Below, piece after piece: positions 16,813 through 55,194 of a DNA stretch of 64,000 nucleotides. The position numbers and the translations under genes were made by a program. The notes beneath the pieces are model-generated. The model did no database searches, was not told where the DNA came from, and saw nothing but the letters and a program-made list of their open reading frames with translations. How positions within the stretch are numbered: position 1 is the stretch's first letter; each line of letters opens with the position of its first letter. Location: the NCBI RefSeq assembly GCF_041886205.1, contig NZ_CP169029.1, one strand, 5' to 3'. Origin of the DNA: Escherichia coli. GTDB taxonomy: Bacteria; Pseudomonadota; Gammaproteobacteria; Enterobacterales; Enterobacteriaceae.

Positions 16813-16843
16813 GAGTTCCTGTCTTAAGCCACTTGCCGAAGTC

Positions 16844-16860
16844 AATTGGTCTTACCAATT
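16844..16860. promoter_or_regulatory. PdhR operator (perfect palindrome AATTGGTCTTACCAATT) in the pdhR promoter
   Basis: 17-bp perfect inverted repeat 32-48 bp upstream of the pdhR ATG; matches the ATTGGT-N3-ACCAAT PdhR box. Confidence 0.8.
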
Positions 16861-17264
16861 TCATGTCTGTGACGCTAAAGTAACAAAGTATTCACCTTAT
16901 GTCCATACAGGTTTTGATTGAAATCATGAAACTGTGCACATTTTAACAACTTGACATATATAACGTTTCAAAGTTGTAACTATGCACAAATGTAGACTTT
17001 ACGTAGGAAAGGAGTTTTTTAACGATTATTAAACTATAAAAATCCGAATTGAACCGATTCACTTACCAATTTTGTGATTTTTAATTCAATTAAAACGAAT
17101 TTAAATTCATTCTACATATTGAGAGGGGTTGAGGCTGAGCTTTACAAACGGTTTCTTTTTAAGCAACTCATCTTCAACCATGCATAAAGCGGGTGCATTC
17201 GCTGCCGCATACCATTATTCTTGATCTGACGGAAGTCTTTTTGTAACAATTCAAACTTCTTTGA

Positions 17265-17282
17265 TGTAAACAAATTAATACA
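17265..17282. promoter_or_regulatory. TyrR-box-like motif upstream of aroP
   Basis: TGTAAA-N6-AATACA resembles the TGTAAA-N6-TTTACA TyrR box, about 70 bp upstream of the aroP start; partial match only. Confidence 0.3.
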
Positions 17283-17352
17283 ACAAACGGAATTGCAAAC
17301 TTACACACGCATCACTGCGTAGATCAAAAAAACAACCACCGCACGAGGTTTC

Positions 17353-50876: not shown

Positions 50877-51055
50877 AATTGCCCCTTGCGTAAAATGTAA
50901 AAACCATAGCCATTGTACTGGTATGGGTTAAATTCATTAACATCTAAGCGCAGAAAATTAACTGCGGCAACTGCTTTTATTCCAGGTTCCCACTGATTTC
51001 GCAAAAATAGCCCAACGTGACATGTTGGGCTGCAAATTGCGCATTGAGATCATTC

Positions 51056-51549: not shown

Positions 51550-53274
51550 TCAGGTTCTCTCCGTTTTGCTTAACCACATTTCATCCATTCCGCCCCCGCG
51601 AATCTGCATCGGGTAGACGTGCTCACTGCCATCGACGGTAACATCAACAAACACCAGGCGATTATTGCGCACCTGTTCCAGCGCCTCGCTAAGTTTGCTT
51701 TCCAGTTCTTGCGGATGAGAGATCTGGATCCCGACGTGACCATAGGCTTCCGCCAGACGGACGAAATCGGGTAGTGATTGCATATAAGATTGTGAATGAC
51801 GGCCGGAATAGATCATGTCCTGCCACTGTTTTACCATCCCCAGATAGCGGTTATTGAGATTCACCACCAGTACAGGCAACTCGTATTGCAATGCGGTAGA
51901 CAGTTCCTGGATGTTCATCTGAATACTGCCGTCGCCAGTGACGCAAACCACGATTTCTTCTGGCAACGCCATTTTGACGCCCAGTGCCGCAGGTAAACCA
52001 AAACCCATCGTGCCGAGGCCGCCGGAATTGATCCAGCGACGCGGTTTGTCGAATGGATAATAAAGCGCAGCAAACATCTGGTGCTGCCCGACATCGGACG
52101 TCACGTAAGCGTCCCCCTTCGTCAACCGCCAAAGAGTCTCGATCACCGCCTGCGGTTTAATCTTTTCACTGTGAGTGTCATATTTCAGGCACTGACGAGC
52201 GCGCCACTGTTCAATCTGCTGCCACCAGTCGCGGATCTCATCCAGCGGTTGATGGGCGGATTCTTGTGACAGGAGTTCAAGCATTTGTTCGAGGACCTGG
52301 CGAGCATCCCCCACAATCGGGATATCAGCAGTCACGGTTTTAGAAATGGAAGTAGGATCAATATCGATATGCAAAACAGTGGCATTTGGGCAGTACTTTG
52401 CCAGATTGTTCGTCGTTCGGTCATCAAATCGTACCCCGACGGCGAAAATCACATCCGCGTTATGCATCGTCATATTGGCTTCGTAGGTACCATGCATTCC
52501 CAGCATGCCCAGTGCCTGACGATGCGTTGCCGGAAACGCCCCCAGCCCCATCAATGAGGAAACAACGGGCAGATTCAACGCCTCCACCGTTTCTTTCAAC
52601 TGCTGATGGCAGCCCGCCGTGATTGCCCCACCGCCTACGTAGACAACCGGTTTTTTTGCCGCTACCAGCGTTTGCAGAGCACGCTTAATTTGCCCTTTAT
52701 GTCCGGTAGTAGTGGGATTGTAAGAACGCATACTGACCGACTCCGGCCAGACATAGGGTAATTTGTTCGCCGGATTAAGAATATCTTTCGGTAAATCAAC
52801 GACCACTGGTCCTGGGCGACCACTTGCCGCCAGCCAGAAAGCCTTTTTCAGCACCTGCGGAATGTCTTCCGTTTGCTTAACCAGAAAACTGTGTTTAACC
52901 ACCGGTCGCGAAATCCCCACCATGTCGCACTCCTGAAAGGCATCGTAACCTATCAACGAGGTCGCTACCTGCCCGGAAAGGACAACTAATGGAATGGAAT
53001 CCATATAAGCGGTGGCGATGCCAGTAATCGCATTGGTCGCCCCTGGACCCGACGTTACCAGCACGACGCCAACTTCCCCGGTCGCGCGCGCCAGGCCATC
53101 GGCCATATGCACCGCCGCCTGCTCATGACGAACTAAAACATGATCGATACCACCCACGGTATGCAATGCATCATAAATATCAAGGACTGCGCCTCCGGGA
53201 TAACCGAATACTTGTTTAACGCCCTGATCGATAAGCGATCGGACGACCATCTCGGCTCCAGACAACATCTCCAT
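51550..53274 (-). CDS. ilvI: Acetolactate synthase III large subunit
   Basis: 574-aa ThDP enzyme [37 protein letters not shown]…; start at internal ATG. Confidence 0.95.
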
Positions 53275-53591
53275 GGCCTGCCTCACTGTTTGACGGAAAA
53301 AATGTGTAAAACACATTAACCGTCCGATCTTGCTTAAGCAATTGGCAGACAGAGACATAAACACGGGGTAATAAGAATAAACAGGAGGAAAGGTGAAAAG
53401 AAACGATAAAATCCTCCATTACAGAGGATTAAATTGATAATAAATCGGCTCAATCCCACAACTTACAGCAATTTCTCTATTTTTTTAATTAATCCTAAAA
53501 TAGAGAGCCCACACATTCAGGATAAAATCCTACATTCAATAAAAAATGCAGAATAAACCAGACATTGATGTCTGACCTATTCTGCATTCAG

Positions 53592-54536
53592 TTAGCGTTT
53601 GCAAATTGAGACTAATTGCTCTTCCATCCACTGATGACCTTTATCGCGCCCGGCAGCCTCATGCCAGGAGAGATAACAGGTTCTGCTATTTTGTTTTAAC
53701 GGCAGCGGTAATACCTGTAATTCTAAGGATTCAGCGAACTCTTCAGCCAGCCAACGCGGCGCAATAGCGACCAGATGCGTTTGCGACACCACGCTAAGTA
53801 CGCTCATCATTGCCATGCCCTGATACGCGATACTGGCTTGCTTATCTACCGTGTCATACCACGGTTGACTAAATGATGCGAAACGATCGAGCGAAACCGC
53901 CGCATGTTGTTCGTTATAAACATCATGTTTCAGTAACGGGCCTTTAATTGTTGGATGATTTTTGCTGGCTACCAGCACCATTTCATCTTTAAATAATGGC
54001 ACGCTGGTAAATTCAGGACGATGGAAGTCTTCATAACTAATCACAAACTCCGTTTCCTGATAACGCAGCTGATGTTCAGTGTTCTGATTTAATGAAGACT
54101 TGAACATGACATGTATATTTGGCGCAATCTGCTCAATGTGATTATAAATCTGCGAGGTCAGAATGCTGTCTAACGGGCTGCAAACACAAAGATGAAATAC
54201 ACGTTCACTGCTCGCGGGTTCAAAACCTGAACCAGGCAATTCATTTTGTACTAGTTGCAATGCCTGACGAACTGAACCAAAAAGTTGAAATGCGCGAGCA
54301 GTCGGTTGAATACCACGGCCATAACGAACAAAAAGCTCGTCATTAAACATCACCTTCAGGCGTGCAACAGCGTTACTGACCGCAGGTTGCGACATTCCCA
54401 GAACATGAGCGGCACGGGTAATGTTTTGCTCCTGCATCACGGCATCGAAAACGGTTAATAAGTTGAGATCGACCATGCGTAGCTGTGGCTTGCTTAACTC
54501 CGCCGTCTCTGGATGATCTGTTTGTACCTCTGGCAT
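53592..54536 (-). CDS. leuO: LysR-family global regulator LeuO
   Basis: 314-aa translation [44 protein letters not shown]…; start taken at the known N-terminus, though the ORF extends 28 codons further upstream. Confidence 0.9.
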
Positions 54537-55194
54537 ACTTAACTCCACTGTCACACTTAACTCCCTTTCCCTTATTGGAATGCAGAGAAATAATCCTGAA
54601 GAATATGATTTATCATGCATATAAAATAAGAAAAAGGAAAATGAGTAAAATTAGGAAAACATAAAGATACGGGTTCTTATAAAAACAGAATCCATTGCCG
54701 TGGAAAGCGTCATTTACCACAGCATAATAATCCATAATGTTTTTGTTGCGAAAACAATCTAATCATAACTACCGCGAATACTCAATCATCTACAAAATGG
54801 ATTAAATGTGCTTATTTAATAATTAATTTATATATTTAATGCATTAATTCTTAACATTAATCGATCAATAATATTCACCATATCAATATCAAAAAACTCG
54901 CAAAACATATAATTCAATACAAATCATAAGGATAGGTTTTTCTACCTGTGCATTTTGTCCCCTTTTTCCTCGTTGATTAGATGCAAAAATTTATTCTGAA
55001 ATATGTCAACCTATGAAAAGCGTCGGTAGTTAAGCAGAAATTAATATCGCTTGTTTTAACCACAGCAGCACAATTAGCTAATTTTACGGATGCAGAACTC
55101 ACGCTGGCGGGACGTTTTTGTTACGTCAGGGTTGACATCCGTTTTTGTATCCAGTAACTCTAAAAGCATATCGCATTCATCTGGAGCTGATTTA

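Follow-up and report, generated by a model that had tools for sequence, protein, structure and literature searches.

AT-rich intergenic regions on both sides of leuO in Escherichia coli very probably serve as regulatory DNA of the conserved leuLABCD-leuO-ilvIH cluster

The leuO locus is a textbook case of silencing by H-NS, of anti-silencing and of neighbouring promoters that are coupled by supercoiling. Expression of leuO from the promoters P1 and P2 is silenced by H-NS and StpA, BglJ-RcsB activates P2, and the gene is autoregulated (PMC5025477, PMC3950696). Published work describes a promoter relay from ilvIH to leuO to leuABCD via local supercoiling, as well as cis-spreading of H-NS (PMC4264507); in Salmonella, H-NS nucleates upstream of leuO and LeuO blocks the spreading of H-NS (PMC4264507, PMC6797219). 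This relay was established mainly in Salmonella, in leu-500/topA backgrounds. One study describes the leuO locus of laboratory-grown wild-type E. coli as remaining off and the strength of the relay there as minor (PMC5025477). In a 2024 study, leuO transcription rose more than 10-fold when tetA was transcribed divergently from a position 427 bp ahead of the leuO start site; the H-NS ChIP-seq of that work takes leuO for a locus already known to be bound (PMC10981669). Similar properties are known from bgl and proU, where AT-, A-tract- and TpA-rich DNA likewise surrounds a weak promoter that stays off in the laboratory unless antagonists (LeuO, BglJ-RcsB) or insertions activate it. Unlike bgl and proU, the leuO locus is part of the core genome, encodes a regulator, shares its spacer with the promoter of a biosynthetic operon and is coupled to neighbouring promoters. 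Among E. coli strains we found one with an IS1 element in the leuO-leuL spacer.

We analysed the leuO region within a 64-kb stretch of E. coli DNA (hereafter the window). A 2.2-kb query around both spacers was 100% identical to E. coli XJ5.2 and about 98.3% identical to K-12-like strains, the other full-length matches listed ranging from 96.6 to 98.3%, and the region was found in 5,371 of 5,426 complete E. coli genomes. The annotations of XJ5.2 and K-12 MG1655 agree at this locus (Table 1), and according to this map the two AT-rich intervals singled out in a preliminary description of the window are exactly the ilvI-leuO and leuO-leuL intergenic regions. K-12 carries the same locus, leuL-leuO-yabR-ilvIH (b0075-b0077, b4726), in identical gene order. 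Spacer lengths are 658 nt here versus 659 nt in K-12 for leuO-leuL and 317 nt in both for ilvI-leuO; the aligned spacers are 97.0% and 98.1% identical, respectively, and differ by about 26 substitutions or indels over both. Between the two strains there is no difference in the promoter sequences of P2 and ilvIH, in the YabR peptide or in the marbox. Transcription start sites were taken from published Cappable-seq data for part of the K-12 plus strand (PMC4782308 supplement) and were placed on the window by alignment. They coincide with recognisable promoters, P2 with its extended -10 at 54600 and ilvIH at 53305. Two further weak K-12 start sites inside leuO correspond to window positions 54096 and 54028.

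Table 1. Annotated and predicted features around leuO, in window coordinates
Feature	Position	Strand	Details	Basis
ilvI	51550-53274	-		XJ5.2/K-12 annotation
ilvIH 5' UTR	53275-53305	-	31 nt, from start site to ilvI ATG (53274)	
ilvIH core promoter	53313-53341	-	-35 TTGCTT (53336-53341), 17-nt spacer, -10 TAATGT (53313-53318)	
ilvIH AT-rich upstream activating, Lrp-binding region	53345-53565	.		Lrp ChIP-seq literature
yabR	53393-53437	+	14 aa, GTG start, SD AGGAGG (53383-53388)	annotated in XJ5.2 and K-12 (b4726)
leuO intrinsic terminator	53544-53589	-	20-bp stem and T-run, directly after leuO stop codon	terminator scan
leuO CDS	53592-54536	-	314 aa, GC 0.46	annotation
leuO start module 2	54534-54536 (ATG)	-	SD2 GGAG (54543-54546), annotated leuO ATG	
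leuO 5' UTR from P2	54537-54600	-	64 nt	K-12 start site 84304 placed at 54600
leuO start module 1	54552-54554 (GTG)	-	SD1 AGGGAG (54561-54566), in-frame GTG six codons upstream of ATG	
AT-rich core, expected H-NS/StpA nucleation and spreading region	54600-54950	.		composition and literature
leuO P2 core promoter	54601-54636	-	extended -10 TGaTAAATC (54607-54615), weak -35	mapped start site
Probable BglJ-RcsB box	54647-54666	-	CTTTATGTTTTCCTAATTTT, centre about 57 bp upstream of P2 start	
Marbox (MarA/SoxS/Rob)	55068-55082	+	GCACAATTAGCTAAT	identical to PMC5684230 entry
leuLABCD promoter and start of leu leader	55132-55194	+	-35 TTGACA (55132-55137)	
Weak start site divergent from leuL promoter	55158	-		K-12 start site 83745(+)
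leuL	55195-55281	+		annotation
leuA	from 55374	+		annotation

Taken together, the AT-rich blocks are very probably the regulatory intergenic regions of the conserved cluster in which leuLABCD diverges from leuO and ilvIH lies downstream of leuO, one of them serving as a platform for H-NS/StpA and the other for Lrp-dependent activation of ilvIH. For this reading, composition, coordinates, near-identity to K-12, promoter positions and conservation over 80 species were computed here, and occupancy, silencing and relay were taken from the literature. Since both spacers are well-studied control regions of E. coli (H-NS at leuO, Lrp at ilvIH), the finding is an ordinary one: the locus is already known in detail, the window holds an ordinary copy of it, and this copy has little weight beyond its correct annotation. 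By-products of the analysis are a base-level map of elements for this strain, the rejection of a 28-codon extension of LeuO, the status of yabR and a pair of tandem LeuO start modules that differ between genera in which one is in use.

The AT-rich blocks flanking leuO were located with exact coordinates in the preliminary description, and their composition was borne out by measurement. GC content was 0.522 for the whole window, 0.322 for the leuO-leuL spacer (54537-55194) and 0.360 for the ilvI-leuO spacer (53275-53591), and fell to 0.265 in the 351-nt core of the former. An AT-rich run highlighted before, aattaatttatat...caataatattc, lies at 54821-54876. Among 300-nt windows over the 64 kb (mean 0.522, sd 0.046), the minimum of 0.26 was reached by the one starting at 54621, and the third-lowest begins at 53291 in the ilvI-leuO spacer. 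The window has 25 annotated intergenic regions with a length of 60 nt or more; none is longer or richer in AT than leuO/leuL, and ilvI/leuO takes fourth place in AT-richness, near pdhR/aroP. Intergenic DNA is AT-rich in general in this window, with a pooled GC content of 0.416 for these 25 regions. The leuO-leuL spacer also contained 55 A-tracts per kb versus 16 per kb in the window (3.4 times) and 97 TpA steps per kb versus 42 (2.3 times). Helical phasing of AA/TT in the A-tracts was weakly above that of shuffled sequences, 3.7% of which reached the same value.

For comparison across species we collected 80 further Enterobacteriaceae species with LeuO as query. The leuA-leuO spacer measured 747-941 nt in these species (median about 813), and the median of its lowest 300-nt GC content was 0.28. 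AT-richness of the leuO flanks is thus not a quirk of one strain and is an ancient property. When 81 orthologous spacers were aligned, the AT-rich body showed an identity of 0.2-0.5 per 10-nt bin, with conserved islands in between. The orthologous spacer of Salmonella Typhimurium, with the leuO silencer described by the Wu and Bossi laboratories (a 72-bp AT-rich element), has a like layout, AT-richness and islands (L006, L007), and the relay in Salmonella shares the mechanism of H-NS nucleation and spreading that is relieved by LeuO and by transcription-driven supercoiling. Activation by BglJ-RcsB, in contrast to the Salmonella relay system, has been described for E. coli. Escherichia and Salmonella share little sequence in the AT-rich core (identity of 0.3-0.5 in 10-nt bins over all species), and the exact silencer element of Salmonella can therefore not be transferred to this locus by alignment.

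Nucleation and silencing by H-NS had been proposed for both spacers. For the leuO-leuL spacer this proposal agrees with the literature, and from the 97-98% identity with K-12 we infer occupancy by H-NS/StpA in this strain as well. The part concerning the ilvI-leuO spacer needs correction, as the documented occupant there is Lrp and the spacer also accommodates the leuO terminator. A scan with the high-affinity H-NS motif TCGATAAATT (tCGATAAATT-like, at most 2 mismatches) returned three matches with 2 mismatches within 46 bp (54825-54870), and the highlighted AT-rich run coincides with this sole local cluster of matches. The whole window contained 80 matches versus 56 expected; the motif is too common across the window for its matches to be evidence by themselves. 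Scanning for H-NS and Lrp motifs does not discriminate in AT-rich DNA.

In the proposed mechanism, H-NS and StpA would nucleate in the AT-rich core of the 658-nt spacer, spread from there and hold the leuO promoters off. Relief from silencing might come about in four ways, by activators that bind within the spacer such as BglJ-RcsB at P2, by LeuO itself, by negative supercoiling together with transcription from neighbouring promoters as in the promoter relay, or by insertions that part the silencer from the promoter. A role of the spacers in this relay was likewise part of the preliminary description and is supported for the leuO-leuL spacer by published work (PMC4264507, PMC10981669). The gene geometry needed for a relay from ilvIH to leuO and on to leuABCD is present in this strain, the relay itself being known from the literature. 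Besides the silencer, the leuO-leuL spacer carries a marbox for MarA/SoxS/Rob and the attenuator-controlled leuLABCD promoter.

The 5' UTR of leuO transcripts from P2 was conserved at 0.74-0.85, and its folding did not differ from that of shuffled sequences (z = 0.02), i.e. no significant structure was detected. The P2 promoter block was conserved at 0.77-0.87 among 81 sequences. A generic sigma-70 scan predicted fewer sites than in shuffles and missed this real extended -10 promoter. The BglJ-RcsB site of leuO has been described 57 bp upstream of the P2 start with the core motif wwTTCykA (PMC3950696). At this distance we found a block with a conservation of 0.81-0.87, CTTTATGTTTTCCTAATTTT, which is the probable BglJ-RcsB site as judged from its position. 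This putative box differs from K-12 by one A/C exchange (TTAGG here, TTCGG in K-12). The most conserved block of the whole spacer (0.93, 81 sequences) contained the sequence GCACAATTAGCTAAT, which is listed in Table 1 of PMC5684230 for leuL<>leuO of E. coli as a MarA target in ChIP-seq and in vitro (+++); the Salmonella version GCACAATTAGCTAAA is bound by MarA, Rob and SoxS (PMC10268841). Judged by this identity of sequence, the conserved island is the marbox. Three of these known elements, namely P2, the BglJ-RcsB box and the marbox, are absent from the preliminary description. Conservation was again high (0.8-0.94) in the leuLABCD promoter region. The Rfam family Leu_leader (RF00512) matched at 55181-55330 with 145.8 bits versus a gathering score of 50; this leader overlaps merely the last 14 nt of the leuO-leuL spacer, the rest lying outside.

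On the other side of leuO, the 317-nt spacer carries the leuO terminator, the embedded yabR gene and AT-rich upstream DNA for the activation of the ilvIH promoter by Lrp. The start site of ilvIH (K-12 position 85599) was the strongest of the region with a Cappable-seq score of 43, and the -35 block of its promoter was conserved at 0.73 among 79 sequences. Within the upstream region the motif GATAAAATCCT is repeated at 53405 and 53521. A six-site map of Lrp binding in this region was reportedly established by Wang and Calvo in 1993. A scan with the Lrp consensus YAGHAWATTWTDCTR yielded seven matches of at least 11/15 versus 7.0 +/- 3.0 in composition-matched shuffles. As the scan was no better than shuffles, Lrp occupancy of the ilvIH upstream region rests on the literature, where the ilvI promoter gave a strong Lrp signal in ChIP-seq (10.1101/276808; PMC10127797).

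Small unannotated ORFs or small RNAs had also been suspected in the two spacers, and such genes could in principle explain why the AT-rich blocks are maintained. Some observations point in this direction, as a translated small gene, yabR, sits in the ilvI-leuO spacer and weak extra K-12 start sites map to window positions 55158 and 53367. The yabR gene is divergent to ilvI and lies inside the Lrp region, its peptide is the same as that of K-12 b4726, and the YabR small protein was detected by epitope tagging (PMC6001520). However, yabR is already annotated, and among 78 related sequences it was intact in only two, from E. coli and its closest relative. Escherichia sp. E1V33 and L005 have GAG in place of its GTG start codon. 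As it is intact in so few sequences and the start codon is lost in other Escherichia species, yabR looks young or fortuitous, and it is probably a young small ORF specific to E. coli. We tested all 28 ORFs with a length of 10 codons or more in the two spacers, and beyond Escherichia only two of them were found intact, one of 11 codons in 18 of 80 sequences and one of 40 codons, from the ilvI-leuO spacer, in 9 of 78. A search against Rfam at E<=1 over positions 53000-55600 returned the Leu leader and chance-level matches, with no RNA family inside the two intervals, and the leuO 5' UTR folds like shuffled sequence. Of the earlier suspicion, what stood was that a translated small ORF is present; further conserved ORFs or Rfam RNAs were not detected in the intervals, and maintenance of the AT-rich blocks by hidden genes is largely refuted and highly improbable.

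Even less probable than hidden genes is a recent acquisition of the region as foreign DNA that is silenced by H-NS as xenogeneic, which would fit the lower GC content of leuO compared with its neighbours (0.53-0.54), the far lower values of the flanks and the fact that such DNA is a typical target of H-NS, but is contradicted by the order leuA-leuO-ilvI, spacer length and composition being kept in 80 of 80 Enterobacteriaceae species, by a LeuO identity of 73-99% across the 80 species sampled and by the description of leuO as 'core genome' (PMC6797219). We rejected a recent horizontal origin on the conserved synteny, and any acquisition of the leuO region would be ancient because synteny and spacer are conserved in these species. 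The divergent arrangement of leuLABCD and leuO with ilvIH downstream was kept throughout the 80 species.

With the AT-rich blocks read as regulatory DNA of this conserved cluster, the segment directly upstream of leuO deserves separate consideration, since it had been pointed out that the leuO ORF extends 28 codons beyond the annotated start. This is correct as far as the reading frame is concerned, as a 342-aa ORF is open from an ATG at 54618-54620; the open frame upstream of leuO comprises 38 codons here versus 59 in K-12. We followed up whether this longer N-terminus is translated, and the evidence argued against it. Automatic annotation has produced a LeuO protein of 342 aa in one or two cases (1 and 4 contigs), and the ATG would be part of transcripts that begin further upstream, at P1 or at the start site at 55158. 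However, the mapped P2 start site is 20 nt downstream of this ATG, which falls outside the P2 transcript and within the promoter spacer, where it adjoins the extended -10. Its SD energy is +2.8 kcal/mol, i.e. there is no Shine-Dalgarno sequence, versus -7.9 and -5.9 kcal/mol for two starts further downstream. The motif containing this ATG was present in 65 of 82 sequences, consistent with its conservation as promoter DNA. It was in frame with leuO in 14 of 74 motif-bearing sequences, and in 6 of 82 sequences this frame was open as well. Many genera have in-frame stop codons 6-24 codons upstream of the annotated leuO start, and conservation falls to 0.34 inside the putative extension. Because the ATG lies in a promoter, lacks a Shine-Dalgarno sequence and is rarely in frame, and because stop codons occur upstream, the 28-codon extension is not coding, and the 342-aa form of LeuO was rejected as having next to no likelihood.

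The two downstream starts form a tandem, almost exact duplication of 13 nt directly upstream of leuO, in which GGAGTTAAGT-GTG is followed by ACAGT and GGAGTTAAGT-ATG. Each start codon is thus preceded by its own Shine-Dalgarno sequence, and the anti-SD duplex energy was more favourable for the GTG (-7.9 kcal/mol) than for the annotated ATG (-5.9 kcal/mol). Both modules were conserved in most of the 82 sequences. In eight species (Kluyvera, Pseudocitrobacter, Kosakonia oryzendophytica and an unclassified Enterobacteriaceae bacterium) only the upstream start was present, there as an ATG, and a few species such as Klebsiella indica had the downstream start only. LeuO may also start at the GTG, because this codon is conserved, has its own SD sequence and occupies the position of the sole usable start in the eight species. 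It is conceivable, if on balance unlikely, that E. coli LeuO starts wholly or partly at this GTG and has 320 aa, the start having shifted between the modules across Enterobacteriaceae. Literature searches for translation-initiation profiling or a discussion of the leuO start codon yielded nothing relevant, and the ambiguity of six codons may be a new, minor point. If true, a GTG start would alter the accepted N-terminus of the global regulator LeuO by six residues. Public annotations show the 320-aa form of LeuO on 101 contigs and the 342-aa form on 1, compared with at least 1,000 contigs for the form of 314 aa.

Upstream of leuO we found two near-identical modules in tandem, each consisting of a Shine-Dalgarno sequence and a start codon. 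The downstream module is the annotated leuO start and lies 18 nt downstream of the GTG module; the stronger Shine-Dalgarno sequence belongs to the upstream, in-frame start and not to the annotated ATG. In 8 of 82 Enterobacteriaceae sequences the upstream start was the sole leuO start, and the codon there was ATG. A LeuO protein of 320 aa is annotated on 101 public contigs.

Coordinates of the features in and outside the leuO flanks
Feature	Position	Strand	Remark
Tandem leuO start modules	54534-54566	-	upstream GGAGTTAAGT-GTG, downstream GGAGTTAAGT-ATG
Putative BglJ-RcsB box	54647-54666		core TTCC[T/G]AATTTT
Marbox	55068-55082		leuO-leuL spacer
GGAGG	53383-53388		yabR Shine-Dalgarno sequence
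Divergent weak start site	55158	-	K-12 Cappable-seq, 83745 (+)
Intragenic weak start sites	54028, 54096	-	K-12 data, sense strand of leuO
IS1 site of strain YPE12	roughly 54770-55000		equivalent position
pdhR/aroP spacer	16813-17352		540 nt, GC 0.35
28-codon 'hypothetical protein'	50958-51044	-	XJ5.2 annotation, between cra and ilvH

The top-conserved element of the leuO-leuL spacer was the marbox (0.93 among 81 sequences), which precedes the estimated leuL start site by approximately 90 bp and is separated by approximately 475 bp from P2, the leuO-proximal promoter. Proteins binding this marbox are MarA in E. coli (PMC5684230) and MarA, Rob and SoxS in Salmonella (PMC10268841). The putative BglJ-RcsB box reads TTAGG in the strain studied here as opposed to TTCGG in K-12, and the box is conserved well outside Escherichia, namely in Klebsiella, Enterobacter, Kluyvera and Citrobacter. 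This breadth suggests that leuO may be generally subject to control of the RcsB type, perhaps involving other partners. In the ilvI-leuO spacer (79 aligned sequences), the GGAGG that serves as Shine-Dalgarno sequence of the 14-aa small-protein gene yabR was also kept in Citrobacter, in species from which the yabR start codon is absent. Judged from this pattern, the motif is probably constrained for a reason other than yabR; it may, for instance, belong to the region upstream of ilvIH.

Insertions in the spacer upstream of leuO are the classical route to leuO activation. E. coli YPE12 (NZ_CP041442.1) carries a natural IS1 insertion in this AT-rich DNA between leuO and leuL, and the element separates much of the leuO-leuL spacer from P2.

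Among the weak start sites mapped in K-12, the one divergent from the leuL promoter overlaps the -10 region of that promoter, and transcription from it would cross the entire AT-rich spacer toward leuO. Two further sites lie within the leuO coding sequence, which has a low GC content (0.46), and resemble the spurious promoters typical of AT-rich, H-NS-bound genes.

Elsewhere, the pdhR/aroP spacer ranked second in AT-richness among the long intergenic regions of the window and contains the 300-nt segment with the second lowest GC content, starting at 16821; a Salmonella ChIP-seq table lists aroP<>pdhR as a RamA target. In E. coli XJ5.2 (NZ_CP074354.1 3740765-3804764) the 2.2 kb around the leuO flanks were 100% identical to the window, whereas the full 64 kb were not byte-identical.
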